The translations under genes were made by a program, and so were the position numbers. DNA of 45,797 nt, filler included, from Catajapyx aquilonaris (Eukaryota), in NCBI GenBank assembly GCA_000934665.2. It is 2 parts of 2 records of this genome, joined end to end, with 100 filler letters (N's around TTAATTAATTAA, not from the genome) between each part and the next. Parts side by side here need not be neighbours in the genome. Positions count along the whole stretch, not along the records: positions 1 to 22,829 come from JYFJ02005801.1; 1 more part is not named here. One strand, 5' to 3'. The notes under the pieces were generated by a model. That model saw only the letters and a list, made by a program, of their open reading frames with translations, was not told where the DNA came from and ran no database searches. Of this stretch, positions 994-33,834 are shown piece by piece; positions within the stretch are counted from its first letter, which is position 1, and every line of letters begins with the position of its first letter.

Positions 994-1616
994 ATTTTAA
1001 GAGAGTTTGAGAGGCTAAACGACGGATTCAAGGAGCCTGGCCTCGATAAGATATTCTTGAATGGCTTACTACCTGCGACGTCAAAACTGCTTGCATTGAA
1101 GAAGAATACGGCAACTCTGAAACTGATGAATGACATGGATGAGCAAAAAAACAAGTGCAGCAGTGTTGAGGAAGCCAAGGGCATTCAAGTGAATACAGCA
1201 TTAGTCATCCTGGCCACCCGGGTTGGCTAGATGACTACCAAGATGTTTGTGAAGGAGGACGAAAAAGTCAGTTCTGCTGTATTGATAAGAAATTTGTATA
1301 AGTCGTACAGAAAATAATGTTGTTGGTTTTTTTTTCAGAGGTAGTCATACCCCGTCATCACGTACAGTGGTAGCAGCCTCCTGAACGCCGAATTCAAAAT
1401 TGAGGTGAGGGAGGAGCAAGTAGTGGCGACTGCACATGACATGACATAACAGAAGCAGTGACCCTCTTGTTCTGTGTGTGTTACGTTTTATGGCTGGAGT
1501 TTCCCGCAAAAGGTAAAACGTTGCTTATGTTTGTTGGGCACTATTTCCTTAGGATGAAGGATTGCCAACCGGGAAGGAAGGCCATGACACTGTGGAGGGA
1601 TCTCCACAGTTTGTAA
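994..1616 (+). pseudogene. Degenerate two-exon fragment of a SAMD3-like accessory protein of the type carried by CACTA/EnSpm elements
   Basis: Acceptor tttccag at 993; reads ILREFERL...KLLAL; GT donor ~1267, acceptor tttcag at 1338; then EAVTLLFCVCYVLWLEFPAKGKTLLMFVGHYFL...stop 1616, with AATAAA downstream. Frameshifted. Confidence 0.5.
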
Positions 1617-2027
1617 AATAATACAAAAATAAATGCATTGTGTCAAAAACAGACACCCTGACTTTCTGAATACCTTGGGCCCTCTGGGCTACATCAGGCG
1701 GAGGGTTCTACCAACTGTGAGACTACGCACTCCGGAATCTTACAATATGTAGTCAGCTCTGCAGCCATATTTTCGAGCCAATGTCAAGGAGATGAAGATA
1801 AGAGACATGCGTGAATACACAGTATCCAGTGACAAAGAGACAGTGGCAGTCAGGTACTCCTTCAGTGGTCGTGAGTAGGCCTACATCAAAATACGAAGTA
1901 TGAGGAAACTACCCCCCACTTTGTCATTTCCTGCACTGTATTCAGAGCCTCCTTGTATCAAATGGGTTAAAAAAGCAGATCTCCTTAAACTTACAAAATA
2001 CCTGCAAAATCCTCAGAACGAAACCTT

Positions 2028-2701
2028 TTACATTAACCTTAGAGCTGACACAGAAGTAGCTCTACACCCCACGACGCGAAGGATCCCAATTCCCCTCAAG
2101 ACGGCAAAGAGGAGCTGGACAGGGTGGTCCAGGACGGGGTGATTGTTCCTGTAGAATGCCCGACAGACTGGTGTGCACCAATGGTTCTGGTGCCCAAGAA
2201 GGGATCCAAGCGTCTGCGGGTATGTGTGGACTTCACAGAGGTAAATAAGGTAGTACGTAGAGAACACCACCCGCTTCCTGAGGTGGAACACACACTGGCT
2301 CAGTTAAGCAAGGCCAAGATTATGTCTAAAATCGACTGCAACTCGGGGTTTTGGCAGGTGCCTCTTACCGAAGCATCATCGCACCTGACCACTTTCATAA
2401 CTCCATTTGGGCATTACAGATTCCTTTGTTTGCCATTCGGAATTTGGTCAGCTCCAGAGACTTATCAGCGGAGGATGTCGCAGCTATTCCAGGGCCTAGA
2501 TGGGGTTGTGTGTCACATGGACGACGTCCTAGTATACAGAGCTAAGCAGGAACAGCACGACGAGCGACTCAGGAAGGTACTGCGAAGGATGTAAGAAGCA
2601 CGCCTCATGGTAAACCCAGCCGAATGCTGTTTCTCAACCCAGGAAATGAAGTTTCTTGGTCACCTATCACGCCACGTGGGATCGAGATGGACCTCAACAA
2701 G
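2028..2701 (+). mobile_element. Ty3/Gypsy reverse transcriptase fragment
   Basis: RRIPIPL, WCAPMVLVPKK, LRVCVDF, KIDCNSGFWQVPL, TTFITPFG, LPFG, HMDD (YxDD variant), KFLGH, GIEMDLNK; stop and frameshifts; no LTR seen. Confidence 0.92.
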
Positions 2702-3048
2702 GGAAGACTGGGCGAGGACGGCTGAAGGAGATGGCCAGGGAGAGAGTGGGCTTGAAGCTGGAGTCCATCTCCAGGGCTCATCGTGTTGGGCCAAAGCTCG
2801 TGGTGAAATTTGACAGTGGGAAGGAACGTGAGGGGATGCTGCGTGAGAAGATCAAGTTGAGGGGCAGCCAAATATATATTGACGTGGACTTTAGTGTCGC
2901 AACCAGGGCTGTCAGGAGGGAGCTCTTCAAGATGGCCAAGGAGTGGCGGGAAGCTGGCACCCTCTGCACAGTGAGGGTTGACAGGCTGATGGCGGACGGG
3001 AGGTGGTACCGGTGGGACGAGGAGAAGAAAGAGGCAGTGCTGGAGTGA
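2702..3048 (+). mobile_element. Non-LTR retrotransposon ORF1 fragment (L1 transposase-like RRM/CTD), copy A
   Basis: ISRAHRVG..VVKF...KLRGSQIYIDVDFS..RRELF...RVDRL..GRWY; paralogues at 8847 and 13634. Confidence 0.75.
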
Positions 3049-3070
3049 CTGGAGGCTGGCTGCAGGAGGA

Positions 3071-3161
3071 CGAGGAGAGGGACGAGGAGAGGGCCGAGGA
3101 AGATCCTACTGAGGTCCCCTCAGTAGGATCTTCCTCGGCCCTCTCCTCGTCCCTCTCCTCG
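3071..3161. repeat. Perfect inverted repeat with 44-bp arms and a 3-nt loop
   Basis: 3071-3114 is the exact reverse complement of 3118-3161. Confidence 0.95.
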
Positions 3162-3599
3162 GGAAGGGGACGGAAGAGACAAATCAAGGTACTGTAACAG
3201 TGATATTAGTTTACTAGAAGAGGCCATTATCTTCCACACCGGCATATTAGTTGTTGCTGAGGGTCAGCCCAGTCCTCTTCTCAGCCTCCATTTCACTTCT
3301 ACAGAACCCAATGACTTTGAACCCCAATCATGTAGTGCCCCAGGGAGTGAACAGGGGGCGAATGAAGGCGATGAAGAAGGGGCGAATGCAAACCAAGGTA
3401 GATTATCATCATTGGTAATATTGTCCTTAAGGGCCGGGTGCGCCATGCACGGTATATAAGGAACTATTGGTTCTTTCCATAAACAACTCACGGCAAGAAT
3501 GGGTTGTTTACCATAATTATACTGTGCGTGGCGCACCCGGCCCTAAGACTGTAAAATACAGTGACGCCACACACTGACACTACTGTCTTTTGGTTTGCT

Positions 3600-3899
3600 A
3601 GAGATTCAGAAGACACGTAAGAGATTTCGTCATGAAGCATCTGACTCGAAAAGAAAACGTCTCCGGAATAGTGGTCAAGATTACGTGAATCGAGCAAAGC
3701 GATCATCAGATGAGATGGTTGGTCATAAATGGATCAGAAATTGTCATATGTTCACCGATGAAGACGAAGAAAGGGTACATAAGTCATTTAGGGATCGTGG
3801 TGACTGGAACCTGCAGAACACGTGGATTTGTGGTCAAGTAGAGGAAACTCTTCCAAAGCGACAGTATCATATCAAAATGAACAACAAAGAACCACGGCG
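3600..3899 (+). mobile_element. Sola1-type transposase N-terminal fragment
   Basis: KRKRLRNSGQDY...FTDEDEERVHKSF..GDWNLQNTWICGQV...PKRQ resembles the N-terminal region of Sola1 transposases. Confidence 0.5.
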
Positions 3900-3902
3900 T
3901 GA

Positions 3903-4587
3903 AGCTGGGTTTACATGTGAGCGAAATAATCAGCGATTTGCATCGCCAGCGATGAAATCCTAACGAAAGCAGTGATTTGGGCCGAAAGTAGCAATCGCGT
4001 TTAAGAAGGGAGGGCCTCGGCGATGACATCGCTCAAGGAGATGGCGACGACATCGTCGCTCACTTGTGGCGTATTCGGGTGGCTGTACTGTGACGGCGTG
4101 TGGTGGCAGAAAGGCACCCGCCTGTTTTCGTTCGATTTCCAACATGGCGTCAGGGGGGAAGAAGCCGCAGATGAAGACGTCATACTTCAGCGCCCAGAAA
4201 GAGGCTCTGATCACGGCCGTGAGTGATCGGAGCCCTCTCTGGGACAAAGGCTCGGCTCAATACCGGGATAGGAACATCAGGGATGTTCTGTGGGAGGAGG
4301 TAGCACAGGAGGTCAATATTCCTAGTAAGTAAAAGTGGGTAGTCTCTTTGCCATTCCAAAATTCGAGCCATAAACAACCCGATCGTCTTTTGTCTCCTTC
4401 CGATAGTCCTTCGCGCGGGCGATGCTGTTGGCATGCCGTGGCGATGCACGTCGCCGGCATGTAAACACACGGGCGATGCTTAAGCGCTATCGCTTGAGTC
4501 ATGACGTCAGAACCGCTACAATTCACGGTCGAAATGCATCGCCGCGATGCATTTCGCTGATCATTTCGCTCACATGTAAACCCACCT
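3903..4587 (+). mobile_element. Non-autonomous PIF/Harbinger element carrying a MADF (Myb/SANT-like) exon
   Basis: TIR AG(C/G)TGGGTTTACATGTGAGCGAAAT at both ends, flanked by TGA/TAA; ORF from ~4144 with EALITAVSDRSPLWD...YRDRNIRDVLWEEVA, ending at a GTAAGT donor. Confidence 0.85.
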
Positions 4588-4844
4588 TAAGATTAGCAGA
4601 CTGTTTTTCCTGCGAAAGCTAGGTAACATTACTGCACTTCAGCTATGCCATTTTCTCAAAATGAGGTTTTGTGGGTTAGCCCACCATTCCTCTAAGAGGC
4701 TCATGTAGGGTCGACACTCGACCATCGGAACGGCTCCCCAGAGGAGCCGCCCGTCCCACGATCGAGTCCCAAACCAGGAAGGTCCGGAGCTCGCCCCAAT
4801 CTCGTCCGACAGGCCTCTCGACTTCTGCCTGGTCACCCAGGCCT

Positions 4845-5197
4845 CCAAATCGTTTTGAACCATCGTTTTCAAGGCATGAATGAAATTTCCGAGTTTTCCG
4901 TTCCTTTGCCCTTCGGCACTTCTTAGTTTATCAGAGAAGGAACTTCAAAAGTGTGTCGGCGACTTTTCAGTGAAATATTCCAGAGGCATTAGTTCACATT
5001 TTGTACGCCAAATTGTTACATTTAGTCACTATGCAAAGGAAGACATGACAAAACTTACGACAATTCGCGAAGTTGCTAGTTTCATTATGGAAAAGGGCTA
5101 TTGTACTTCTTTTCCTGATTTACTCGTATTTACTCAGTGTTTAATCTTCCTTACTTTGCCAGTAACGGTGCCCTCAGCAGAACGCGCATTTTCGAAA
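4845..5197 (+). mobile_element. hAT transposase C-terminal dimerisation-domain fragment
   Basis: LNHRFQGMNEI..F.FL.P, then SFPDL...LIFLTLPVTVPSAERAFSK, cut off directly after SK. Confidence 0.88.
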
Positions 5198-5199
5198 GT

Positions 5200-5898
5200 G
5201 AGCAAGCTGTCACCCAATTCTACAACAACGAGGAAGTGTCACGCCTCTTCCCAGGGAAAAAAGGACTGTGTCGGTGAAAACCCGTGACGGAAGGGAGCAA
5301 CACCAAAAGCGGCTTCTCCTTGCTAATTTAAAGGAACTGCATGAACTATTCAAGGAGAAGCATCCTGAACACAAAATCGGGTTTCGGAAGTTTTGTTTGC
5401 TTCGCCCGAAGTGGTGCGTAAGCGCAGGTTCGCCAGGAACACATTGTGTGTGTGCTTGCACGTATGGTACCATCAAAATTAATGGTGCACGGGGCCAAAT
5501 TGAAGAACCTGTCGAAATATCATCACCTACTGGAAAAACTTTTATGCTCTTTGGAAGATCGGAACTGCATGTTGCCCTAGAATCTACAAGGTGCGAGAAG
5601 GACTACTGGCATCACCAGAACTGTCCGTCAAAGAAGACGTAACCAATGGAACAACTCAGAACGTTAGTGTCTGTTGTAGATACCGCTGATGATTGTGTGG
5701 AGACATTGGCGCATAAACTGCAAACCTTACCTCCCCATCATTTTGCGGCACAAGCACAGCAACGACATTTGTCCAGTGTGGAAGGAAGATAATGCAGGAT
5801 TGTTGTGTGATAATTGCAGATTTCTCAGAAAATTATCACTTCATAAAACAGGATGAGGTGCAGGGATTCCACTGGAACAAGGACCAGGCAACATTACT
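5200..5898 (+). mobile_element. Sola2-type transposase fragment, frameshifted
   Basis: QFYNNEEVSRLFPGKKD, QKRLLLANLKELH.LFKEKHP.HKIGF.KFC.LRPKWC..G..GTH.VC.C, and DFSENY..QDEVQGFHWNKDQATL. Confidence 0.7.
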
Positions 5899-6419
5899 AT
5901 TAGAGCAACAAAGAGATTCAGATGTGCTGAATGCATACCTCAATGATGCTGCATCCCAACGCCTCTATTTTGTTTAGGTGAAGAAACGCATTGCATATAA
6001 AACGATGACGTTAAGTTAGGCTGGGCCGACTATACGCGGCACGTCCTGTAGATGGCTCTGACCGTAGCCACCTGCATGCTCCATGTTATGATATCCAGCA
6101 AGTATATTAAGTACACCCTTTGCTGACATTTCAGTTCTGCATTACAAACGTGAAGTACGTACGTACGTAACAACTTCCCTGCTCTATGAGAGTGTAAGTG
6201 GCTTAAGTACGTACAACCTGACTGTACGACATGGGCCGCAAAAAGAGCACCTGTTTCATGTGGCATGAAGGTATAGCAGGCCGTCGAAGTGTGGGCATTG
6301 GTAGTTGTGTGTACAAGTTTTTGTTTCAAAAGAGTGATGAAGGATGTCAAGATGTGTGCCTGTGTTCTAGATAACACCTGCTCCGGGTGGAGTAAAAACC
6401 CACATAAGGGGGCCATATT

Positions 6420-6810
6420 GCATTATTGGAGGATATGGTCCCATATATTTGAAACTCTAAAATTGTGGAAAGGCGATGTTCATGTTACGGAACAGGTCAA
6501 ATTTATCAAAGTGGTTAATATCGATCAAAGCAGTAATTGATCTTTGGGAGGTATTGTCAGCACTCAACCAGGACCCTTTAGAGCATTTTTTGGTGCAGTT
6601 AGAAAAAACAAGAGAAACAAGAAGCCCACTCCGGAACAATTTTGTGGAGCATACAGAATTCTCTGCATTTGCAGATATTTTTACTCGGCCCTGTAGAGAT
6701 ACTCTTTCCCAAGTGGAGGCCTTTGATTTGTCTTGGGATGAGAGTGACATTGCTCCAAGTGTTGTGGAAGACAATGTGATCATGTACGATCATGTTAATA
6801 TATATGTGGA
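6420..6810 (+). mobile_element. P-element/THAP9-like transposase C-terminal fragment
   Basis: WLISIKAVIDLWEVL...LNQDPLEHF, matching the NQDxLExxF motif around the catalytic glutamate. Confidence 0.7.
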
Positions 6811-6829
6811 GTGTACATGAAAAAGTTGC

Positions 6830-7083
6830 AAAGGCACCTCCTCAGGGGCGGGGACGGCTCCCCTCTCTGCGGCCACTGCCACCAGGCCCCTTCTCTGACG
6901 GTCCAGCACATGCTGCTGGACTGTCCTGCATTGCACCAACTCCGCCTAGACACCGGTCTCCTGCGGGCGGGAGATCCCGCTCCTTCCACCCTCGCTCATC
7001 TGCTGTCCGACTCTGCGGACCCCACTGTTATGTTGGCTCTCTTTTCTTTTTTGAAAAGAACCAACATGTATGGAGATCTATAA
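6830..7083 (+). mobile_element. I-clade LINE ORF2 C-terminus (CCHC zinc knuckle)
   Basis: HLL...PLCGHCH..LTVQHMLLDCPAL...LFSFLKRTNMYGDL-stop. Confidence 0.8.
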
Positions 7084-7970
7084 CCGTTGCATTTTAAAAA
7101 TATACTCGTAACGTTTTGTTTCACTTGTTACACTCTATTGGAATTTTACAGGCACTACTGTAATAAATGCACAGGAGATAGGGCTGGGACTTCCAAACAT
7201 TGGACCTGTGATCCTAAAACTTGAAGGATCACAAGCAATGGAAGGCACTGGACCGGACTACATTTTGTGTTGGATGGTACACGAAATATTCCCACAAATT
7301 GAGCACATGAAGACGTATGAATCTCTGAGAGACGCACTTTTCGGCCAACAACTCTTCTGTGGGGAAGGATATATTGCTATCCTGATGGCGTCCTTTTATG
7401 ATTATGAGAGCCTCGCAATGTACACCCTTGTCATTCGTAAGTATCGCTACATCGATAAATCTCCACATGTTTAATAAGCTCAATGACAATTTCATTTTCC
7501 TATGATTCCATGTATTAGGTGCAACCCCAAGAATTCATGCTAATGCTAATGTCACACAAAATCAAGCGTGCAGTGCCTGAAGAAGAAATCTGATAAGGCA
7601 TAGGCATCAGCCAGCAACAATGCCAAAAGTGCATCGTCAACGCCAGCTTTACCGTCGTGCAAGTAATGAATCCTCTGCAAGCATGGATGCAGCTGGACGA
7701 TAAGCTACATAGCGATTCAGCAGTGTTACCTTTGAAGATGCATCAATGCTGTCAGAATGTTGAAGAATTGTGCAAGTAGTGTATCGTCAGAAAACAATAA
7801 CAACAGACAATAACGAAGACAGCAAGTTAGTCCCCGGATATTGAAACTGGAATTTATCTCTGAAACTATGAGGGTCCAATAAAATATTCTTTCGAGCACA
7901 TTCACTACCTCACATTCCTTTACTCGTCTAGCACATTCACTCCGGGGGCCAACTTGACAGCGGTGAATAG

Positions 7971-8196
7971 CCATGGCATCCAATGACTCCAACATTGCAT
8001 AAGATTCTAACTCATGGGGCAACTGTAATAGAAAACTGCCTTTTGCCTATTGGACAACTCTCCGAAGAAGCGACTGAAGCATGGAACAAGCACTTCCGGT
8101 CATATCGTTTATCCCACTCGAAAGTTTCTTAGGGAGTCATGCAATGTTGATGTCTTGTACAGGCTTCTCTTGACATCAGATCCTCTTTTGACTAGA
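7971..8196 (+). mobile_element. Transib (RAG1-related) transposase C-terminal fragment
   Basis: Manual translation, absent from the ORF track: PWHPMTPTLHKILTHGATVIENCLLPIGQLSEEATEAWNKHFRSYRLSHS...DVLYRLLLTSDPLL. Confidence 0.88.
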
Positions 8197-8224
8197 GGTT
8201 TGGTAATTTTTTTTGCCAACTGGT

Positions 8225-8846
8225 GAGGCGCAACTTGAACAAGGTTCTGAATCTGCAGCTATCTGCTTTGATTTTGAAAAGAACTTACCCCTACCAGTGA
8301 CAAACATTGGACAAGAATACTTCAAAAGGCAACTTGGGTTACACAATCTGGGAATCATTGACTTGGCAACCAAGAAAGCAGTGATGTGCATCTATCCTGA
8401 ACATTACAGTGAAAAAGGTCCAAATGAAATCATTACCATCTTGAAGTGGTTTGTCGAAAACATATTATCGGAGAATAAGAAGCTTCATGTGTTCATGGAT
8501 AATGGATTTGTGCAATGTAAAAACAAGTTCATTTTCGCAATAGGAGCGCAATGCCAGAGAGTTTAAGGCCTAACTTCAAGCGGATCCTCATGCCAAAAAG
8601 TGAAAATCTTACCGTTGACCCAGCCAGCTTGTAAGTTTAATGAGATATGCTTGTATTATCCAATTCCCGGGCATTCATTCATGGCTATCGATCGTTGCTT
8701 TGGCAAGATTGAGCAGTTGCGGAAGAAGAAAAACTATCACTGTACCATCAACATCGGTGAATATGATTCGATAATGCAGTTGCGAAGAAGTTTGTGGTCG
8801 TTTATGTGAAACTTCCAGTCACAATGGAAGAAGATGGTTGTCCTGT
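8225..8846 (+). mobile_element. Sola1-type DDE transposase fragments
   Basis: ICFDFEKNLPLP...YFKRQL..HNLGI, KGPNEI, FMDNG..QCKN, then PGHSFMAIDRCFGKIE; an unrelated ~80 bp stretch sits between the two parts. Confidence 0.75.
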
Positions 8847-9275
8847 TATTCCCGGAGGGACAACCTGGTGGTCAGCGGGATCCCGGAAGAGCCGGAGGGG
8901 ACTTGGGCAAGGACAGAGGAGTTGCTGAAGGAGATGGTGAGCAAGAGGATGGGCCTGACTTTGCGGTCAATCTCCCGCGCACACCGGGTGGGGCCGAAGA
9001 GGTAGGGGGTGGACCGCAAGGTGGTGGTGAAGTTTGATGCGGGGAAGGAGAGGGAGGCTATGCTGAGGGAGAAGGTGAAGCTGAAAGGTACCAACATATA
9101 CATCGACGAGGACTTCTCACTGGCGACCCGGGAGGTGCGCAGGCAGCTCTTCCGGGTAACACGGGATTGGCGAGCCTCTGGAACCCCCAGCACTGTCCGG
9201 GTGGACAAGCTGGTGGCCGGGGGGAAATGGTACGCGTGGGGTGAGGAGAAGCACGAGGCAGTGCTGGAGCAGAGA
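8847..9275 (+). mobile_element. Non-LTR ORF1 fragment, copy B
   Basis: YSRRDNLVVSGIPE...ISRAHRVG...RKVVVKF...LKGTNIYIDEDFS...RVDKL. Confidence 0.78.
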
Positions 9276-9616
9276 AAGGGAAACCAAGGAGAGCGGAGTG
9301 ACCGGGCAACAGGAGGATGGAACCTGCTGTAACCACATGCGGCACCAATGCCAATCCGGCAGTCCGCAAAGAAGACTGCCACGCCTGCGCCTCACGCTGT
9401 GTAAAACAGGGCACGCGCAGTGCCCCCGAACCACCAACCAATGCCCAAACCAGCATTCTATCAGCAATCTCCTCAGGAGACACACCGCTCCGCCTGGAGA
9501 CTGCAAAGCATCCAAACCGGTACTTCTCAGGGCAATTCCCCCACAGAAACAACGGCCTATTAGGAGGCCAACCAGACACCATCATCCCCGCTAACACACA
9601 TTTGTTCCCAGCAGTC

Positions 9617-9806
9617 ATGCCCCAGCTTCCAACATTCACGAACTCAGAGAGGTTCGACATGCTGATGATGTACGCTGATTGTGGGAAGAATGCTGTTCAA
9701 GCTACGTTGGAGTATGCCCACAGATACCATGACTGGAACCATCCTGGTGATAGGTCCATCCGGCGCCTGGTGAAGCAGCTGCGAGAACACGGGTCATTCC
9801 TTCCGG
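9617..9806 (+). mobile_element. Tc1/mariner-type N-terminal HTH (DUF4817-like) fragment
   Basis: FTNSERFDMLMMYADCGKNA..A..EYA.RY....HP...IRRLVKQLREHGSF. Confidence 0.8.
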
Positions 9807-10030
9807 GGGCCCGTGTGGTTCTTTGTGGGAGACGAAATCAACATGCTGACCATTCCAGCATGGACATGTTTGCTCTTTGCCTGCAAACGTCCGCCCTGAC
9901 GGACCCACCACATGAAGTACTGTATGTATCCAATTGGATAAGGACACCCAAGATTACTAAAGTAATATGCAGCAAGTAATAAGTCACCAACCCCAAATGG
10001 TACAGACTGACGTGCACAGTACTTGTGAAA

Positions 10031-10127
10031 ATGTCTGATTTATTATCAAATAGCATCGTCAAGGATTTCAATCCAAATGTGACGCATCTGGTGGCTGCAA
10101 GTTGCACGGGACCCAATAAGTATTTAG
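10031..10127 (+). pseudogene. Possible BRCT-domain exon fragment
   Basis: IVKDFNPNVTHLVAASCTGPNKYL followed by a G/GTAAA donor and AT-rich intron-like DNA. Confidence 0.4.
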
Positions 10128-10587
10128 GTAAAACATCACATTTTACCTGATTTGTCCCAAAGCTGTCATTTGCTTATATACCTTGAGGGGAACTGTATTG
10201 TATCACCTGTAAATTGCACACATGTTGCTGTAACTTCAGAATGTGCCCTACGATTATAATTCTAGATAATTTTTCATATGATGAATCAATTGTATGACCT
10301 TCCTTTGCCGAAACTATATTTTTTTCTTCTTTTCATTAATACCCCAATCATATGTAGTGCATGCCCATTGCTCTGTCTCTTATGCAGTGAAAAGGACCAC
10401 GTATTTATTATTTTTTATCGATCATTGATATTCATAGCCGTTAAATCGTCACTCGAACTAAGGTGTATTGCAAGGCTGATCTATGGGAAGTGCCATTATA
10501 CAGTGTTAATTTTGTTATCTCCCAAGCTAGTATAGGTGTTATTTTTACAAAAATTAATGGATGATCTGCTCTTGTTATCAGGATAAA

Positions 10588-10725
10588 AGTTTTGGGGCCG
10601 ATATGCGATGAACCCGGCCAAACCACGCATTAAGGCCGTACATACAGTGAAGCAGTTGTGGGAGGTTATGCTAGACCCTAGTTGCGAGGTGACATCAGGT
10701 TTACCTGTAGGAGAGAGAACACCTT
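10588..10725 (+). mobile_element. Probable Maverick/Polinton protein-primed PolB fragment (motif B region)
   Basis: SFWGRYAMNPAKPRIKAVHTVKQLWEVMLDPSCEV resembles the NSxWG(K/R) region of pPolB. Confidence 0.5.
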
Positions 10726-11399
10726 CTGCATAACTTCCAACCCCAGAGATGATCTCCCGCAGTCCCATCCATCCACATCTGAATTTTTGACAGGACCACT
10801 ACATTGGAGAAAAGGGCTGCTTTCACCTTCTTTCTCAAGGCAATCAAAGCACGAAATGCACCAGGAAAGTAGGACTGTGAGGAATTTATAAGAAATGATA
10901 AGGAACTTTGCAACAAGGCCCGACAGTAGTGATGAATCACGTATTCGAGGTACACAAAGCTAAGAAATGATCGAAATGAGACACACAAGACAGCAATTGT
11001 CCGAAGGAAATATTTCCCCGACATACCATTTTGTGCTTAATAAGCCGGTTCCATTTTAAATTGTGCATTAGCTGGTACAGAATGTCAATCAATCACCTTT
11101 TTCTGAAAAATATATGTAAAGCACGTGTGGAAAATTATCACACATGGTCCAAGTAGGCTACCTTTTATGTCACATGCAAGGGCTGCTCCAGAGGAGGCAG
11201 ATGTTAACGAGCTGCGCAAGGTCATTGATGAATAAAATCATTGCCGGCCTGCAGGAGGAACTGAATTTTCTCAAACAAGGTAATTTGAATTATGTATGTT
11301 GGACAAATTTAAATGTTTTCTGTGACATTTTGCACGAGCTTGAATTTTTTTAGTAACCTTCACAGCACCTGAAGCTATCACGTTCATGACAGCTTGGAA

Positions 11400-11693
11400 A
11401 GAAGTCATGCAACTATTCGGTTTTAAGATAGCCATAGCACAGGAGCTATTTGATTCCATTCAGCCTGACGACACTTGACACCGATGAGGAAACTTCACCA
11501 CGACCAAAGAAGAAGAATGTCACACCTTTGCCACCACCTAGCCACCACCTAGCCACCGCAAGAAAGGCAATGAACACATGCCGAAGGTAATTAAATTGAA
11601 AACCTTCGGAAAGTGTCGTTAGGCTGGATGCAAAGAAAGGTGAAGGGTCATGTGCAGTAAATGTAATGCGTTTTTGTGTTTGAATGCTGACAG
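11400..11693 (+). mobile_element. piggyBac transposase C-terminal Cys-rich domain fragment
   Basis: MQLFGFKIAIAQEL...RKKGNEHMP...KCR.AGCKER.RVMCSKCNAFLCLN, with internal stops. Confidence 0.75.
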
Positions 11694-12761
11694 GAAGGAC
11701 ACCTGAAAAACCAGTGCTCATGATACTGGATAATCATGACTCACATCTATCAATTGATGTTATTGACTATTGCAAGTCTCAGGACATAGTCATGCTGTCC
11801 CTCCCGCCACATTGCTCTCATAAATTGCAGCCCCTGGACAGAGGTGTATTTGGACCTCTCAAAAAGTTCGTTAACACATCCTGCGATTCCTGTATGAGAC
11901 GAAACCCAGGGAGAGCAATGAGCATTTACGATATCCCGAGTATTTTGAAGGATGTTTTTCCACTTGCTGTAACACCAAGAAATGTTCAGAGTGGTTTTGC
12001 TGTGTCTGGAATCTGTCCATTCAACCCGCTAATTTTTACTGACAGTGACTTCATGCCGTCATCTGTGACTGATCGACCACCACCTGCAGCACCATCTGAG
12101 AATTCTGGGGAACCAATGCCGTCTTCATCTACGGATGCTCCATCATCGATGACCAATGGGCCGTCTACGCGTAATCTGGATGACATTCAAGATGCTAGTA
12201 GGATGCATATTAGCCCAGATATGGTGCGTCCCCATCCGAAGGCAGGACCGAGAAAGGGGAAAGCACAGAACAGAAGAAAAAGAACTACTGCCATCCTGAC
12301 AGACACACCTGTCAAAGAAGCACTAGCAGTACAACATGCTGCAGCAAAAAAGCGCCGTTTGACTTTTGATCAAGGTAAGCCTAAATCCAAGAAGTATAGG
12401 CCTACAGAAAAGGCCAAGAAGACAGCAAACATCCCAACCAAAAATAGGACTCGGAAAACTTTGAACAGTGATGCTGTCACCAGTTCCGAAGAGGAGGAAG
12501 AATGTTTTTGTTTAGTGTGTGGTGAATCTTTTGCTGCTTCACAGCCACGTGAAAAGTGGGTACAGTGCCTTACGTGCAAGATGTGGTCGCATCTTCTGTG
12601 CACGGAAGGAAAAGCTACTTACATCTGCCAAAATTGTGACTCTGACGATGACCTACGATGAGAGAGTATTGATGATTACATTTATACCACATTTCGCCAG
12701 GATCGTTTTCAGCAAAAAATTCTGAAGTGAAATCTGTAACAACTATCCCCGCTCTCCCCTA
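11694..12761 (+). mobile_element. pogo/Fot-like (DD35D) transposase 3' half with a C-terminal PHD finger and a probable right terminus
   Basis: ILDNHDSH...LPPHCSHKLQPLD with 35 residues between the two Asp; CLVC...WVQCLTCKMWSHLLC...YICQNC; stop at 12661; terminal-like CCCCGCTCTCCCCTA at ~12747-12761. Confidence 0.88.
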
Positions 12762-12983
12762 CCATTATTAATTACTTTCATTCATATTGACAGGAAAAAG
12801 TTATGGTAGGTCTTCAAAGTTTGAAGCTGCAATGACCTTATCTCAGCTTCAATTTTTTATGTATAAACTTATGTTATTGTTCCCCCAAGCCCTTCAAATT
12901 TTATATTCATACATCATCATCATCATAATCATCATGTATTGCGACTAAATTGAGATCTTATCCATGTGTCATGCTTAACACAG

Positions 12984-13275
12984 GTTCATATTCCGCAAGG
13001 TGTGGTGCTGTCACCATGCAAAAAAGAAAAAAATACCTGCAAGCAAACGAAATACTTATTGTGAAGCTACCCTAGATGTAAAGATTAAAAAGTGCAATAG
13101 GGATACAAAGCGAAATGATCCATACCTCAGGAGGGATCCACCTCTTCAAGGAGAGAGAAAAATAAAGAGGCATAACCATCCTCTGGACACTTGCGGCGCC
13201 CTGCAATACTTGCGTGTCACAGATTCAACTAAGTCTCTCTTTCACGAGTACTTCAACAGTGGATTGGGCCCAGCT
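12984..13275 (+). mobile_element. Mutator/MULE-like transposase N-terminal fragment
   Basis: Acceptor cacag at 12983; W.CHH...NT.CEATL...HNHPL...AL..LRV..TK..F..YF..GLGP, a WRKY/GCM1-like C-x-H...C...HNH pattern. Confidence 0.6.
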
Positions 13276-13278
13276 ACC

Positions 13279-13423
13279 ATGAAACGGTACATCATGGAGG
13301 CATTCCACGAATCGATCTTTGCGCCCCACTTCGCAGAAAAGAAAACTTTGGAAAGGATCAGGAGACAGTATTTCTGGCCTAACCAGAAAAAGGACAGAGA
13401 ATTTCTGCAGGTCGTGCCAGCTT
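13279..13423 (+). mobile_element. Gypsy integrase HHCC zinc-binding fragment
   Basis: FHESIFAPHFAEKKTLERIRRQYFWP..KKD, then ENFCRSCQL in a shifted frame. Confidence 0.82.
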
Positions 13424-14048
13424 GTAAGTTTAATGAGATATGCTTGTATTAACCAATTCCCGGGCATTCATTCATGCCTATCGATAGTTGCTTTGGCAAG
13501 ATTGCGCAGTTGCGGAAGAAGAAAAACTATCACTGTACCATCAACATCGGTGAATATGATTCGATAATGCAGTTGCGAAGAAGTTTGTGGTCGTTTATGT
13601 GAAACATCCAGTCACAATGGAAGATGGTTGTCCTGTTATTCCCGGAGGGGCAACCTTGTGGTCAGCGGGATCCCGGAAGAGGCGGAGGGGACATGGGCAA
13701 GGACAGAGGAGTTGCTGAAAGAGATGGTGAGCAAGAGGGTGAGCCTGACTTTGCGGTCAATCTCCCGCGCACACCGAGTGGGGTCGAAGAGGGAGGGGGG
13801 GGACCGCAAGGTAGTGGTCAAATTTGACGCGGGGAATGAGAGGGAGGCCATGCTGAAGGAGAAGGTGAAAATGAAGAGCAGCACCATATACATAAACTAC
13901 TCATTGGCGACCCGGGAGGTGCGCAGGTAGCTCTTCCGGGTGGCACGAGACTGGCGAGCCTCTGGAACCCCCAACACTGTCCGGTGGACAAGCTGGTGGC
14001 CGGGGGGAAGTGGTATGTGTGGGGCGAGGAGAAGCACGAGGCAGTGCT
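13416..14048 (+). repeat. Direct duplicate of 8623-9265 (Sola1 piece plus ORF1 copy C)
   Basis: Colinear high identity across the same chimeric junction GAAGATGGTTGTCCTGTTATTCCCGGAGG. Confidence 0.95.
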
Positions 14049-14589
14049 CAATTTTTTTCTAAATGCAGGTTGCAAAATTATTGGGTGCCGATGTGGCTTG
14101 AATAGGTTTGGGTGATCCAGTCACCCCAGAAAAATTCACTGTAGTATCCGCCCACCATTCACGCGTCTGTTAAGAAGATACCAAGATGGCCGACCCTGAC
14201 CCAAGATGGCTGAACACCCCCACAAGATGGTGGACGGAAGGAAGGAGGGAACCACGCTACCTTGATTGACCACCCCTAGCGAACTGAGGCTCAAGTTGAA
14301 CCCAGACAGCATTCCTGTTGAAGTGGGCTACACCAGACGGATTGCTGGCCGTCGGGAAACCAGAGTATTGTGTGTAAGATGTGGTGGTTGAGAAGTTCTC
14401 AGGTGTAAACTTCACTGATTTTTAAATAATTGATGTAATTGTATTGGAAATTTATTGGCTTAATAATAACTTGGTTTTGAAAAGAGCAAACTTGTCGACT
14501 ACATTTCTTCCAACCCTGCATCACTCTTGTCACAACTTTGGTAGGAGGCCACTGGGGACTCTCGACTGTTGTGTGTTTGGTTGTTTGTC

Positions 14590-15595
14590 CCTTGCCTACC
14601 ACAAGAGGCTGTATGTGGACTTCTTCCAAGGTATTGACGATAGGGACATGATACAGCTCCAGTTGACACGTGGAGAGGGACAGTGTATCATACATCCTAG
14701 AAGGGACTCGCAGCTTGATGCCAATGCGATCCTCCTGCAGGTTGAAACTGCTGCACAATCACAGAGAGGTTCCGATGTAATTTCTCCAAGTGACGGGGTT
14801 TTGCACATTCATGTCATCCTTATTTCATCAATGTCTGGGGCTGGTCATACGAAGTACAAATTGTTTAAGAATACCGGTATGAAATTTGAGGAGGTGCAGG
14901 TCATTTGTCTATATCGAAAACAATGATAAATAATCTATGCATACACAAGGCACTTGTCGTGACCAAAGGCCTATTTTGTGAAGGTTTTTGCACAACATGC
15001 CAAAATTCTCCCAGTTGTTCTGGTGCCCCTGACAAATTCGCACTGCAAAACTTGTGCGCGGGATATTCACGGGAAAGAGTGCTTTGAGCGCCACATTAGG
15101 GCTGGCGCTACCTCTCGATCTGTGTGAATAACTCTTCTGCTGTAAAAAAAAAAAAATGTTCCTCACTAGTAGACATGAGAAAGAGAGGTTCCAAAGCTAA
15201 GTACGTGTGTGGGGAGAGGTACTGTAAGGTATGTAAAAAGATGGTAAGAGGTGGTCATCAATGATTTCAATGTTACATACAACCATGCACTACACCTGAC
15301 CATCTTGAGAAATACTTGCCGAAGCATCTGCAGTGAGTAGAGGAGCTTCAGTCTAAGAAGCGTAAAGTAGAGAAAAAAAGAGGTTGACTTCGTGTATATA
15401 TTTTTCGATATAAAGACCACGCAGGACCGAAATCACCCTGACCTCGAACGCACATGGGTTCACAAAGTAAACTTCATAGTTGCACAACAGGTTTGCTCTA
15501 CCTGTGCAGAGGCGATAGATATGCGCTGGTGTCACAAGTGTGGAGTGCGAGAGAATACATTCTGTGGCTCTTCGGCACTGCAAGCATTTGTTCGC
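14590..15595 (+). mobile_element. Maverick/Polinton pPolB N-terminal and exonuclease fragments
   Basis: DMIQL...RRDSQLDANAILLQVETAAQS..LHIHV...GAG; NNLCIHKALVVTK; Cys-rich linker; YIFFDIKTTQ...HKVNFIVAQQVCSTC...CHKCGVRENTFCG (Exo I region). Confidence 0.75.
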
Positions 15596-15889
15596 AACAC
15601 GAAAAGGATTCCACGATAGCTCATGCTGCAACCACGGTCCTCCATCAAAGAGAAGAAGGAGGCAAACATCATTAACCCTTTGAGGTGAGGTGGTCACATG
15701 GTGAAACCTCCTTTTCGATATCATTCACGCATTGCATACATGGCAGAGAGAAGGAAACACGCTCCAGACTTTTGCGTCTTCAATTTACCCTCAACCACAA
15801 CTTTAGCCTGAGAAGGAGGTGGTGGTGGTCATGGAAAAGCTACAGTTACGATGAATGGGGGGGACCTCTATTCAGGTCTCGACTTTGGC

Positions 15890-16214
15890 CAACACAGATG
15901 AAACACCAACGTACAAAGCGTTACCATTCTTTGCACTCTCAGTCCTCAGTTTACCCCATTCGAACGCAGACTGTGAGAGAATTTTCAGTCAAGTCAATCG
16001 CACGAAGACGGATGCTAGGAATTCTCTTCTCACCGAAACTGTTGAGGAGTGCGTTCTGTCGTCGGAGAGGGTTAAGTCGTACCAAGGGTGCTGCTCCCAG
16101 TTTACCCCCACCAAGGAAATGTTGCAGAGGATGACATCATCCACATTGTACCCTAAATGTCAATCTGCGAAGCAGGACGAAACGTCAACAATCAGTGGCC
16201 TTTATGACGAGTGA
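15890..16214 (+). mobile_element. hAT transposase C-terminal fragment, second family
   Basis: YKALPFFALSVLSLPHSNADCERIFSQVNRTKTDARNSL. Confidence 0.9.
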
Positions 16215-18147
16215 CTGAGTGAGAGTGCGGACGAAGATGATAATTAAGCTGGTATCCTCGTGAAAGTTTTCTGATAAATACTGTACACAATTGAGCATAT
16301 ATCAGTGGAAATCGGAGAAAAGGTGATATGTCCACATTTTGCCATTTTTAAGGTGGTATGATGGGAGAGGCAGTGTGCAGTTTAAGGATAGTCATTCAGT
16401 AAAAGTAGATTATTATCAGAGAGGAAAATAATATCAGTAATACATACACTTCCAATAAATGAACAATAACCACCAGTGAGTCTGTTACTAGAGTATGCTA
16501 CATCATTCTTTAATAATATTGCAGTTCCTACTACTTCAGGGGGCAATGCGAACGAAAGTGGAAAGAGTTTTCGAATTCCACCCGGTAGTGTCAGCACAAT
16601 CACAAAGTGTGGCAGTAGTGTTAATGAGTCGACTGCTACTGCTAATGAGACAACTGCACCATTGATGGTATCTGATGAGGGTAACCAAGAGATTGCTTCT
16701 CACAACACAGCATTGGCCGATGGCAGTGGATATGAAGACATGGAGAAGTCAGAAGCAACAATCTATGTTGAATTGATACCTGTGCCGGTGACTCATGACG
16801 ATGAAGGATTTTACAATATGGCTGGTATGGATTACTGAATGTGTGTTCAATGCAAATTTATTGCAAAATGATAATTATTTCTGGTTTTCTGGACTGTATA
16901 CAGTATGTTGTTGAAAATTTATCCCATTCATAATAATTTTTTATATTACTACTTCTCAGATAAACCATCTCACCCTGAGCATGTTGAAGACAGTCTGCTA
17001 TGGTGATGCTCTTGCCAGTATTTGCCATTGCGAACAATGGAAGCCACTAGCAGCTTAGGGTATGACTACCCCGTGCAAGAATCCCCTGGTGGTCGCCACC
17101 ACTACGGGCGAAAAACCGGGCGCCAACCCAAGCGAAAGACGAGTACTCGTGACAGGGGTCAGAGAGAGGCTGATATCAACTGTGAGCATAAACTGATACC
17201 TTGCTGGGAAAAAATCCGAGATGGTCTAGGAACATTGGGAAAACTATTAGAATTTTTGACTGCCACGAGTGACCTATTCAACTTCCTTACTTCCCAGCTG
17301 TGCTCAAACCTTTGCCTAACTTGTCTAAATCAGATTTTCATTTAGAGGCATCATTGCGTGAATATAAAACTACTCGTTCATTAATTCATTCATTGACGCT
17401 GTCAGATTACATTTTTCTCACACACACCTGTCCTCATACTCATTCAACTGTCATTTTTCTCCCAAGAGTTTACTTGCAAGATTTTTTGACTACTTTTTAA
17501 CTGCCATTTCAGCTGGCAATATTCGCAAGAGGGCAGGTAAGCGTGTGTTGCTAATAACTCAAGGACAGTAGGCGTCAGACAGTTCACCAGGTCATGATAC
17601 AACAAGCTATCCTGATCACATTATTGGAGACAGCCACACAAAATCAAGTTCAGCAAGGAGGGCTCAAGGTAGAAATTGCGTCAAATCTTGGCAGAATTGC
17701 CACTGCACTAGATAACCAAGGGAAATAATAATAATTTGCGCGCATTCATTTCCTTCGCTTGATAAACAACAATCCCTTTAGGTATGCTACTGCCTAGGAG
17801 CTCATGAGGTGGGAATTATCTCTGCTGATTAGCACAGTTTAGCACTTCATGATACAAGCTTGCGGTGAGTCCCTGGCGATCATCACACGCTCCCCGCGTG
17901 ATCAACCTCCTGAATTTCTACAAGGTGGAAGATACCCCAGTAACATACGAATTTCACCCCGCCGGATACTTCCTGGCCTCGTGGCTAAGATGAAGAGACA
18001 GGAAATATTGTAGGCTACTTAGTAAAGGTGTGTACATGAGCAAGTGTATTTGCCTTCCACTTGGGCATGTAATAGCTGAAGCTGTAAGTAGCAAGTTGCA
18101 AATGCGAGTGAAGTTGGGGGGACATCTACTTTTGTCATAACCAGCAA

Positions 18148-18230
18148 GTAGGGGTGCAGGGGCCAGTGATAATATGTACTGGCCCAGACTACTATGGTTC
18201 AGTGACTTCAACTCATTCGCCAACAAACAT
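18148..18230 (+). mobile_element. Possible C-terminal end of a MADF domain
   Basis: SRGAGASDNMYWPRLLWFSDFNSF resembles the SG.G..D.Y.P...W....FL tail of MADF proteins. Confidence 0.4.
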
Positions 18231-19837
18231 GAGTCCTAATGTAGGCTCCTGCAAGTGAGGCAAAATTCCTGCAGCTTGGGAAAAGCAATATGGTACAGAT
18301 GGCTCATACAATACACATAGATACAGTAGCGGGTACAAAATTTAGTTCATCGCTTGCAAAGCAAATGGTAGCACTGACAACAACACTGACTGAAAACATG
18401 CATTGTTTGTTGCTGTGCTTTTTGTCCCTTATTTCCAGTCTTAGTAATAACAGGGTGTTCGGTCAGTTGTAACAAAAGCCATCAGTAAGGTGCAGTGCCT
18501 CAAAAGGACCCAGATGGATGAGTTCGCCTTGGACACGGTCTTCATAGGCGAGGATTTTGACCAGAACTTCGGATCAAAGCTGCACCTGGGCATCACAGGT
18601 TGTGGATGGTACGTCTCAGGGAAGACGAGGGCCACAGTTGTTGTTGGTTTATGAAGCCTTAATGCTTAATCAGAGCGTTGTCCCCGCCAGTACCCCGCAA
18701 GGGATCTCTTGATGGTTAGGGGATTGAAGCCCACATCCCACCCCATTGTCCCCAAGGCCTCTTATCTTTATGCTGCCCCTCCAAGTACTTTCAATCAATC
18801 CTCCAGTAGATCTTTTTTGGCTCACGTTCCTGTGACATCACTTGATGCTGGATATGTCCACCTTTCGGCACATTCTTCATGAATGACAACTTGGACCCGA
18901 ACTCCGGATCAAAGCTGCACCTGGTCATCACAGGTCACACACGGTATGTCTTTGGGAAGAAGAGGGCCACAGTCTCATCTGGCTCTCATGGTGCTGACAT
19001 TAAACCAAGCGCCAAAGAGCCAAAATAGGGTATCACTGGAGAGCAACAAGACATCAACCATTTGCTGGAGTATTGCACAGTAGAGAGACTAGGGACGATG
19101 ACGATACATGGAGAGGGTGGCAGGACTGGCATTCCTTTCCAATATAAAGGTGGTGGTGCATCGCAAACCTCATTGTGTATGCCTGTAAAGAAATGGATAG
19201 GTATGAGAAGAAGTACTAGTGATGTGTGCCATGTTATGTGCATCAGTCATGTAAATTAATCTACACAGTGTCTACAACTTGAACACATACATGGGGGACA
19301 GTACCAAACACATCTACAACAGAGGTTGATTCCACATCTGACATCCTTTTTATGTTCCATTTAATTTTTGTCTGTGCAGCAACATGAGAGTGATGGCAGT
19401 TAGGTTTCGGTAATGTGCTATGTGACTGACAGGGAATAAATTTGTCATGCAACTAAGACAAAATGTTTCAGGTTGACCTGACCAACACGAACCCATGGGA
19501 GACTTCACCAGAACACATTTGCCTTCTCACTAGTAAGTTACAACACCTCTCAGCCATATAAGACAGCAAGTCCTGTATTTCAGTCTTGGAATAAATGTAG
19601 AATAAGAAGCACCCTAGAGGAGCATAATGTGGGAGTCAAGCAAAATATCAGATTTCTTGTGAGGGGCACACACCTTGGGTTTATCAGTCAGAGAATGACA
19701 GGCATTTTGTATACAAATTATTATTTTTACAATATACAACATGACTATTCAAAGCAACATTTTTAAAATGTTCCCAGTTTTGAAAAGATATTCCAGCTCC
19801 ATGTGCCCATTGCAGTAAAAATTGAAAATAAATCATA

Positions 19838-20588
19838 CAAGGGCAGAACAAATGAAACCCGAATATGTTGTCTGGACCCGATACTACTTAAGCATGGGTT
19901 TAAAACTGCCTGCACAGGAAGATGGTATCGATACCTCCTATTGGCATGAGTCAGAATCTTCGAGCGCATACCACGCCCACAGCCACAGGCATTCCCAGAC
20001 GACGTGCTCCCTATCTCACATGTTTAAGAAGGATAAATGCATTGTTGTTCCATTTTTGCTGGCGTAAGGCAATACACCGGAGCAAATTTATCGAAGGATG
20101 CTTCTCGTATACAGCAGTAATTGCATGGGAAAGACAACCGTATGGGAATGGTTCAGGACATTCCGAAATGGCAGAGAATCCACGGACGTCCTTCCCCGAC
20201 TAGGCCAGCCTCGCGTGCAAGCAACAAGCTGATAAGGGAGGATCGTCTGCGGATTTTCTGCCATTTTGGAATTTCCTGAACCATTCCCATACGGTTGTCT
20301 TTCCCATGCAGTTGCTGCCGTATACGGGAAGCATCCTCGTATAAATTTGCTCCTGTGTATTGCCTTCGGCCAACAAATATTGAACGACAATGCATTGATC
20401 CCTCTTGGACATGAGATATGGAGCACGCCATCTTGGAATGGCTGTGGCTGTGGTATGCGCTCGAATATTCTGACTCATGCCAATAGGAGGTATAAATACC
20501 ATCTTCCTGTGCTGGTAGTTTCAAACCCATGCCTTATGTAGTATACGGTCCAGACAACATATTCGGGTTTCATTTGATCCGTATCTCA
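19838..20588. mobile_element. Foldback mariner derivative made of two inverted 5' halves
   Basis: ~350-bp diverged inverted arms; both encode the mariner HTH (QCIVVQYLLAEG..QIYTRM..VYGSNCMGKTTVWEWFRKFQNGR); TA at the left end. Confidence 0.88.
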
Positions 20589-22829: not shown

Positions 22830-22929
22830 NNNNNNNNNNNNNNNNNNNNNNNNNNNNNNNNNNNNNNNNNNNNTTAATTAATTAANNNNNNNNNNNNNNN
22901 NNNNNNNNNNNNNNNNNNNNNNNNNNNNN
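22830..22929. other. Assembly gap with artificial linker
   Basis: 44 N + TTAATTAATTAA (stop codons in all six frames) + 44 N, exactly 100 bp. Confidence 0.95.
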
Positions 22930-23643: not shown

Positions 23644-23925
23644 GGAAACGGTGCCCAAGAGAATATGAGAAATGGAATGCAGCAAGACACGTACAAAACG
23701 TACAAAAGGAAACGCTTCGGGGGGGGTTGTGTCAGATTTGCAAGAGGAAATTTATATATTAACTCCTTGAGTATGTTGAATTTCCACATGATAACCCACG
23801 CAAAAGAGAAGCCATTCATTTGCCTGGTTTGCAACAAAAGGTTCCCCCCTTTTATGATTCACATAGGGATGGTGAAATATCCTGTGATCAGCCCAAGAAT
23901 GCCACTACTTGGTGCCCCATTTTAA
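23644..23925 (+). pseudogene. Truncated inverted copy of the ZnF terminal exon (unit A)
   Basis: tttcag acceptor then GNGAQENMRNGMQQD; finger 1 scrambled; homology ends after KPFICLVCNKRF. Confidence 0.85.
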
Positions 23926-24689
23926 TATCGAATATCAAACTCCTTCATGAAAAAGTCGCAAACTTAATGAACGCTCCTCTTAGGTAGTGTATACAAGAGT
24001 TAAGAATAGCAAATGGTATGAAATTGTAAAATTATAGTCTCTTCGTGTTCACTCAATCCTCATTTCCTACCCTGTTCTTTTCCTTTCATCAGATTACCAT
24101 ATCTTTCGACACATGATACCACAACCAGCCATTTCATGCCCTCTGTACGGGTCAATGACTTTCTCGGCATTCAAGCTGCTCTCCACAAACTTAAAAGGCC
24201 CCAACTATTTTGCCGACAACACCAATAGTCTACAAACAAGGCACCACAATCGTATATGCCAGAGGTAATTAGGTTCATGTTGGGTTACAGAGTTACGAGC
24301 TGAATACCAGTAGATTTTTTATTTTTTTGCACGCCATGAATATTATTATTGCTATCACGTCGTACCGGACTGCTACAGTCTATGCAAGTGAAATTCAATT
24401 TATGAACTGTACACGTTTAGACATCAACCTGGAAAACAAGTAACTGTAAAATGGAAGGTAATGTAGATGGTTAATAATAATACAGTGAGGATCCAGAACA
24501 AAAAATTCGTGTTGAATTCTTTTTAATGTTTTCATGTAATATTTATTTAACTTTATATTATTTCCACACCAAGGATAACTAAACCCGCAGATAAACCGAG
24601 AAAGACTGTACTGTACTCTCATGCCCATTCTGTCATGTTCACACTGATCAGCCTAATTATGCTTATTTTCCGTTTTCTGAGTACTAAAG

Positions 24690-24912
24690 TCCGGTCGGTA
24701 TCCATGCGAGAGTTTTCTCTTGCCAGAGAAGCCAACTGCGCATGACCGGATCGGAGGAACATCGGAAGAAAAGTATAAAATTTTCATCGTTAATCCCCTT
24801 TCTGAGGGGCGAGAGGGGGCCGGAGACGAAAAATATAGTCAGTCTCGACGTACAAGAGTACAAAATTTCTCGCGCAAGAGAAACTCTTGCGCGGATACCG
24901 CCGATACCGGGC
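24690..24912. mobile_element. Harbinger-type MITE, degraded copy
   Basis: Homologous to 32514-32727 and 29680-29890. Confidence 0.7.
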
Positions 24913-25172
24913 TTAAGCTGAGTCTATTCTGCACAGGCTACATAACATGTCCATACAACCAATGGGAGGGCAACAAAACACAGTTCACATCTCTCTGGCT
25001 TCCAGGCTCTTTGGGGGAGATTGCACCCCTCCTGTCTTTGCTTCAACATCTCTGACATCATCTAAAACCACAATCAAGGTCGCTTCCTAAGCTGTTCATA
25101 AAATCTAGCTATTGCAGCTAACAGAGGATGTGGTGATAACTTGACAGTGTGTGAAATGTGGTCTTACACAAC

Positions 25173-33745: not shown

Positions 33746-33834
33746 TACTGCTAAGTAAGAAGTAACTAGTAGAACGACGAAAATTCCACCCATCGTTTTC
33801 AGAAAGGAGACTTCATGAGCAGTAAATTGCTTAA

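Follow-up and report, generated by a model that had tools for sequence, protein, structure and literature searches.

How does a row of transposon fragments come to lie in a genome with its pieces abutting one another without element ends and all reading in one direction? The question is raised by a stretch of 45,797 nucleotides from Catajapyx aquilonaris (assembly GCA_000934665.2), hereafter called the window, in which two parts of the genome are joined, positions 1 to 22,829 coming from JYFJ02005801.1. The whole window has 45% G+C and is animal DNA. From about 2.0 to 16.2 kb (1990-16211; about 14 kb are visible) it carries transposon remnants, lightly to moderately decayed and arrayed on one strand, that belong to Gypsy, LINE (long interspersed nuclear element), hAT, pogo, DUF7869-type, Tc1/mariner-type and MULE-like elements. 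The pieces are internal fragments. A first-pass annotation of this DNA had described six abrupt joins between them and had suggested capture of coding sequence rather than transposition. The single orientation, which it did not stress, is the most striking feature of the locus. With a probability of about one half, we read the locus as a one-strand remnant array shaped by insertions, deletions and local duplication or conversion, whose orientation would be kept by minus-strand transcription as a candidate source of small RNAs.

All recognisable transposon remnants between 2 and 16.2 kb are on the plus strand. This applies to nine of nine well supported pieces and to 13 of 13 pieces if the weak ones are included (two-sided binomial p 0.004 and p 0.0002, respectively, with the pieces taken as independent). 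A Pfam scan of 134 open reading frames (ORFs) of at least 50 residues from both strands gave a transposon-type match at E <= 0.01 for eight ORFs, all eight on the plus strand; a recount of the ORFs in the interval yielded about 68 on the plus and 69 on the minus strand. No Pfam match was obtained for 107 shorter ORFs (45 plus, 62 minus). The copies of the LINE protein ORF1p were matched by tblastn on the plus strand only, and a second hAT dimerisation fragment at 15855-16211 (Dimer_Tnp_hAT E 1.1e-07, profile 28-79/84), the last recognisable remnant of the array, likewise lies on this strand. The first transposon domain on the minus strand was detected at 20203-20520.

The six abrupt joins do exist. 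They were placed by reading the three plus-strand frames across them and by comparison with Pfam, tblastn and relatives from a protein library, and each was found at most about 35 bases from the position given in the annotation. It had also reported that element ends are missing there, and a search for inverted and direct repeats over 1.5-17.5 kb bears this out: no terminal repeat, long terminal repeat (LTR) or target-site duplication was detected at any of the six.

At the first join a Gypsy-type reverse transcriptase fragment (1990-2701, plus; Pfam RVT_1 E 1.6e-21, profile 1-176/205, ORF 2049-2591), whose reading passes one stop and one frameshift, ends with the motif GIEMDLNK at 2701, and similarity to LINE ORF1 begins at 2702-2721. 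This ORF1p fragment, copy 1 (2702-3045, plus), comprises the RRM and the C-terminal part with its natural stop; it was recognised by repeat families, tblastn and a family profile and is 71-79% like copy A described below. The second join, at 5198-5225, follows a weak match to the hAT C-terminal dimerisation domain (4880-5224, plus; Dimer_Tnp_hAT E 0.018, below the cut-off and stopping at profile 66/84; motif SAERAFSK). The match ends at 5224 and is followed in another frame by a transposase-like N-terminal stretch, with which decayed transposase remnants, putatively Sola2, begin (5225-6830, plus; including a weak P-element-type match, TNP-like_RNaseH_C E 0.0017, in ORF 6541-6693). At the third join a DUF7869-type transposase fragment, copy A (8207-8790, plus; DUF7869 E 7.3e-4, profile 7-80/192; continuation E 0.065, profile 90-124), is cut inside its domain. 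The DUF7869 match stops near 8740, and similarity to ORF1 sets in at 8787-8838, which places the join to the left of position 8846 proposed before. The ORF1p fragment on its right, also copy A (8791-9322, plus), lacks about 125 N-terminal residues (tblastn of P0124 residues 147-283 on 8838-9248, E 6e-32).

The fourth join separates a Cys-rich tail, a putative piggyBac C-terminus recognised by motif in a three-frame reading (11530-11690, plus), from a 5'-truncated pogo transposase (11690-12661, plus). The tail, CSKCNAFLCLNADR, ends near 11690, and the pogo piece begins at 11690-11705 in the middle of DDE_1, corresponding to residue 168-229 of relatives with 520-557 residues. It retains the second half of DDE_1 (E 1.8e-10, profile 74-130/177), a C-terminal PHD-like finger (PHD E 8.3e-4) and the natural stop. 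At the fifth join a MULE/FAR1-type zinc-finger fragment (13050-13269, plus; a weak ZSWIM3_N match, E 0.0064, below the cut-off; motif HNHPLD), whose match ends at 13242, is followed from 13270 by a Gypsy-type integrase fragment of about 46 residues (13270-13415, plus; Integrase_H2C2 E 1.7e-10, profile 2-42/59). At the sixth join, similarity to 8623 onward begins exactly at 13416. The weak FAR1/MULE-type finger, the integrase fragment and a further DUF7869 piece share one ORF of 157 codons. A microhomology had been suspected at 13416; GCCAGCTT belongs to the transposase side in copy A, and no donor was found with which the integrase side could be compared.

The idea that informative coding parts had been retained finds little backing. 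No labelled remnant covers about 43% of 1990-16211 (summed over the list of parts), and the reading frame is kept at two of the six joins, which is the chance rate (counted from the three-frame readings). Retention of coding parts therefore looks like a recognition bias. Nothing indicates that coding content was the reason for which the pieces persisted; they are merely what can still be recognised, and there is no sign of selection for translation. Disabling lesions are sparse in the pieces, at about 1 per 150-200 codons, with none in the 325 codons of the pogo piece. Protein searches with the 157-residue ORF and with the ORF of ORF1 copy B, made to find longer relatives, gave no match. Inverted or direct repeats bounding the composite as a whole were not found either; Helitron ends are too short for a reliable search of this kind.

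What lies to the right of the sixth join is the only piece with a visible template. The 634 bases at 13416-14049 (patch B, plus) align with 8623-9268, 4.8 kb upstream, as a 93% copy which includes the older join between the Sola1-like transposase and ORF1. It has abrupt ends and no flanking repeat. Thus one of the six joins exhibits a donor elsewhere together with ends that lack termini and target duplication. The transposase/ORF1 join is the only one that occurs twice, both copies being within the window, so that the joins near 8800 and 13600 are copies of one event and not two: the join was copied with its surroundings. The transposase frame of copy A continues upstream of 8623, which identifies copy B as the derived, shorter copy.

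The two copies do not differ evenly. The first 168 bases of patch B are 97.6% identical to copy A, with 4 transversions and no transition, and over the other 468 aligned bases the identity falls to 91.0%, with 13 transversions, several indels and 29 transitions by one count or 28 in a per-site list (4 of the 28 at CpG). The difference is significant for all changes (Fisher p 0.003) and for transitions (0.0002). Seen along copy A, divergence rises abruptly from 2.4% to 9% around 8810, and all of the excess consists of transitions. At 9158, 9159 and 9167, copy B shares its letters with paralogue contigs of high depth and copy A does not. The simplest reading would be a later gene conversion, of A with B or with other LINE ORF1 copies, in which case the locus would be subject to templated recombination and the borders of patch B may have shifted since it arose.

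Patch B is followed by a gap of 14 bases and then by a repeat that its other copies extend further left, beyond 14064. A continuation of the integrase, which would have pointed to a simple insertion, was looked for on this side; no core was detected in three-frame readings of 14050-15100, and Pfam gave no rve domain. With a truncated integrase on the left and a truncated repeat on the right, the patch sits between unrelated pieces and not inside a continuous older sequence. Its alignment with 8623-9268 indicates that patch B is copied from DNA, not transposed; equally, it may be a local duplication or gene conversion.

Ordinary transposition has also taken place inside the block, which had been described as free of transposon termini. 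A high-copy element at 3902-4588 (plus) is bounded by terminal inverted repeats (TIRs) of 45 bases that are 91% complementary, and encodes half a MADF domain (MADF_DNA_bdg E 4e-06). Its read depth is 800-1900 compared with about 30-40 for single-copy sequence, and other copies skip 4013-4472. A target-site duplication was looked for around it and no clear one was found. An apparent intron donor follows directly after the half MADF domain, which indicates that the element came from DNA. A transposase-N-terminus-like ORF at 3565-3901 (plus) runs into the left TIR and may resume at 4589-4700 (plus); if it does, this would be a plain nested insertion.

A second case is a high-copy, 5'-truncated LINE 3' end at 6835-7148 (plus; depth 600-900; zf-RVT E 0.12, weak), the only LINE 3' end in the array. 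Its two borders are precisely where other genomic copies diverge, as loose ends at 6835 and 7148 show, and AGGCAC occurs on either side, at 6832-6837 and 7150-7155; such a 6-mer pair was obtained at 507 of 20,000 random placements. This tail is a simple insertion. At 9333-9880 (plus) lies the start of another high-copy element, with a Tc1/mariner-type helix-turn-helix (DUF4817 E 2e-09; depth 430-615); the loose ends are located before 9331-9333. The search for its 3' inverted repeat gave only a weak match of 19/25 at 10079-10103. Furthermore, a perfect palindrome at 3071-3161, built of GA-rich 12-mer units with 44-base arms (100% complementary) and a 3-base spacer, begins 25 bases past the stop of ORF1 copy 1. 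The intact complementarity of its arms suggests a recent fold-back or snap-back copying event.

Might a multicopy Helitron or Pack-type element have carried the whole block, or might it be a chimera of the assembly? We consider this extremely unlikely, and nothing was found in its favour. Read contigs at least 80% alike were mapped on 1001-20000, from three runs of sample one (X1-X3) and one low-coverage run of sample two (X5). The single-copy baseline has a depth of about 30-40, and most pieces and joins range from about 30 to 50. The bins 2269-2902, 5439-6706, 11779-13680 and 16217-18118 are single-copy; low depth at 1635-2268 was set aside. Contigs of single depth without any difference cover 4850-6889, 9376-10771 and 10747-13006 and bridge the joins at 5198 and 11694. 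Multicopy cargo, which the annotation itself had named as the finding that would speak against capture, is thus not what the reads reveal: at single-copy depth the block is not carried by a multicopy element. The difference-free contigs of single depth also count against misassembly, with the reservation that X1-X3 may be the assembly's own source, which makes this check not independent. X5 covers parts of 16.5-19.2 kb without difference and is too shallow for the block. For most pieces, paralogues of at least 80% identity are absent. They do exist for the ORF1 parts, in contigs with a depth of about 130-400 (for copy A about 220-290).

According to the reading that we favour, the array would have grown by ordinary insertions, later deletions would have cut these back, and local duplication or gene conversion would have reshuffled the result. 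The joins would then be scars of deletion and repair and not products of a dedicated uptake system. Transcription of the locus on the minus strand would maintain the one-way layout; it may run on from the zinc-finger genes at 25-32 kb, which are on the minus strand and point in the same direction. Such a locus would give rise to antisense small RNAs, namely PIWI-interacting RNAs (piRNAs), in the manner of one-strand piRNA clusters.

Several observations weigh against this reading. At most two of the 13 pieces are Gypsy, and the DNA transposons share the strand bias, so that selection against sense insertions explains the orientation less easily. An element split into a left half, an insert and a right half could not be demonstrated at any of the six joins; the deletions are therefore inferred, not seen. 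The N-terminal half of the pogo gene was found nowhere in the window by tblastn. The pieces carry few lesions and yet have no paralogues at 80% identity or more, which fits an archive of lost families and fits a capture of rare or foreign sequence, too. Finally, two matches lie on the minus strand, Claudin_2 (E 0.0094) at 12373-12618, antisense to the pogo ORF, and Tnp_DNA_bind (E 0.15) at 6033-6422. Both are far below the cut-off; when nine long ORFs of the minus strand were scanned loosely, the latter and ICE2 (E 0.053) were the only matches.

The locus could instead be a functionless repeat graveyard, whose layout arose by chance or as the by-product of a position inside a long intron of a minus-strand gene, or downstream of such a gene, where sense insertions are disfavoured. 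The visible array is short, and clusters of zinc-finger genes are repeat-rich, both of which would suit this explanation. We regard it as unlikely in view of the 13 of 13 pieces on one strand (p 0.0002), the more so as the orientation bias of introns is modest for DNA transposons. Somewhat harder to sustain is a templated capture at DNA breaks, in which the pieces were copied in during double-strand-break repair (by synthesis-dependent strand annealing, as filler DNA or by template switching) and the joins are repair junctions. Capture of retrotransposon cDNA and filler DNA at repaired breaks is a familiar process, e.g. as Ty1 capture in yeast and as templated insertions. Patch B resembles such events in being inserted between unrelated, truncated sequences as an abruptly ending copy of DNA from close by, without termini, flanking repeat or target duplication. 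The small size of several pieces (146, 220 and 634 bases) is likewise seen in complex repair products, and no termini were found at the six joins. However, break-capture events are scattered and occur in either orientation, and we know of none that built an ordered one-strand array; capture leaves the single orientation unexplained unless selection is added. Moreover, a template is visible for a single patch, and it is local; its present borders are perhaps not original after a later gene conversion within it, and ordinary insertions are found in the same block. A literature search for piRNA clusters built from transposon fragments via template switching or break repair returned nothing relevant. 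Taken as a whole, we judge this explanation quite unlikely.

A shared sense orientation, an excess of coding sequence and missing terminal repeats would all be accounted for if the reverse transcriptase of a LINE or Gypsy element had changed templates from one transposon RNA to another, and if a few of the resulting multi-piece cDNAs had been integrated. All pieces are indeed sense on one strand, LINE ORF1 is the right partner at two independent joins (reverse transcriptase/ORF1 and transposase/ORF1), and Gypsy pieces take part in two joins. In Aedes, hybrids of virus and LTR-retrotransposon sequence lie on the same strand in unidirectional clusters, and template switching during reverse transcription is their proposed origin, as described in parts of 10.1101/127498. 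The hybrids are similar to the present locus in that Gypsy-type pieces stand directly beside foreign ones, with the same orientation, in a one-way array (10.1101/127498, in the same parts); they differ in that here the partners are transposons and not viruses, LTRs are absent and only two short Gypsy pieces occur. The remaining evidence makes chimeric cDNAs very improbable. Chimeric retrocopies such as the human U6/L1 chimeras are expected to end in a 3' end with a tail. The right LINE partner here is ORF1, from the 5' part of a LINE, with neither tail nor flanking repeat, and around no group of pieces was a poly(A), an LTR pair or a duplication found. The TIR element with its apparent intron donor is derived from DNA, and the ORF1 copies differ too widely (71-79% compared with 91-98%) to stem from one event.

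Of the two routes named in the first-pass annotation, templated capture and trimming of nested insertions, the following stands: ordinary termini are lacking at the joins, and copying without transposition is directly supported at only one of them. Ordinary insertions occur in the same block, and for the comparison with CRISPR spacer uptake nothing specific was found. That the array was partly fed by copying internal transposon sequence without transposition, through break repair or template-switched cDNA with one orientation kept, appears decidedly unlikely to us. On present evidence the proposal of capture hinges on one local 634-base copy, and a deletion-worn remnant array explains most of the observations.

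The names reverse transcriptase, pogo, integrase and ORF1 given in the annotation are supported, and Sola1, Sola2, piggyBac and MULE correspond to weak or motif-level matches. A profile of the ORF1 family, for which the fragment from the window was aligned with 39 relatives (40 sequences in all), detects human LINE-1 ORF1p (2YKO) with E 1.4e-13. The relatives, 250-330 residues long, are matched via their C-terminal third of about 100 residues; in the Atlas, ORF1 led to unnamed clusters only (0.91). 'Sola1' is backed as DUF7869, below the Pfam cut-off. For 'Sola2' the Atlas offers a weak lead (0.77), to a cluster with DUF7869 in 35% of its members, and a PDB sequence search with ORF 6461-6817 gave no match. 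The 'piggyBac' tail at 11530-11690 is recognised by its motif, no Pfam match being obtained in any scan, and the 'MULE' label depends on the weak ZSWIM3_N match. Rfam and tRNA scans of the window found nothing.

For the pogo piece 716 relatives were detected among 5.8 billion proteins, none of them above about 51% identity and the best at about 50%. Its ORF (11684-12661, plus) starts with ATG, lacks the region of the first catalytic Asp and has single-copy depth. Either its family was lost and it is a recent remnant, or the piece is under selection. Past its stop codon no terminal repeat was seen. A predicted protein of another genome, P0226 (936 residues), has ORF1-like parts at both ends and, in the same orientation, DDE_3 (Tc1/mariner) and integrase H2C2 domains; a gene model drawn over a comparable same-strand mosaic of transposons would look like this.

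From about 20 kb onward the window holds a tandem duplication of 5 kb as well as elements with inverted repeats. Intact ones with TA on either side, noted before to the right of 19.8 kb, are confirmed, e.g. at 33009-33748 and 37872-38277. The tandem duplication contains C2H2 zinc-finger ORFs on the minus strand (25176-25940 and 30161-31681). Its two units, 23750-25950 and 28750-31700 (minus), are 90-94% identical, with 84-base finger repeats and ORFs of 255 and 507 residues. Between the array and these genes, at 22830-22929, there are two runs of 44 N (assembly gaps), and continuity is not fully assured there. At 39089-39276 we observed three copies of a C/T-rich 60-base tandem repeat that are 96-99% identical.

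How does the locus compare with known piRNA clusters? Flamenco-like clusters are defined by one-strand arrays of remnants, and the flam-like clusters of Drosophila span 200-1000 kb and owe their strand bias to Gypsy elements only, as set out in parts of PMC10643416. The present array is similar to them in its truncated remnants, which lie on one strand beside protein-coding genes and belong to families with few or no other copies (PMC10643416, same parts). The strong strand bias of flamenco is found here as well, but a bias driven by Gypsy/ERV elements is not, these being represented by the reverse transcriptase and integrase pieces only. Instead, pieces of DNA transposons and LINEs prevail, about 14 kb are visible, and the locus is known from sequence alone. 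In mosquitoes, core piRNA clusters are located downstream of genes and transcribed by read-through, as described in parts of 10.1101/2022.08.22.504762. Comparably, our array lies downstream of minus-strand C2H2 zinc-finger genes, with its remnants antisense to the direction of the genes. The mosquito clusters are noted in those parts for viral remnants, of which none were seen here, and it is the layout that is shared, the read-through being theirs (10.1101/2022.08.22.504762).

One-way arrays of remnants are already known, and the make-up of this one is somewhat unusual. If templated uptake took place, it would give piRNA-type loci a second route for acquiring 'memory' beside the accepted trapping of elements by insertion, with patch B as an example caught in the act. 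If small RNAs confirm the reading that we prefer, the array would represent, for a non-model animal, a piRNA-type locus of the one-strand kind with a bias that spans DNA transposons and LINEs and not only Gypsy elements. Such a locus would bear on how these loci are shaped outside Drosophila; templated uptake would matter much more.

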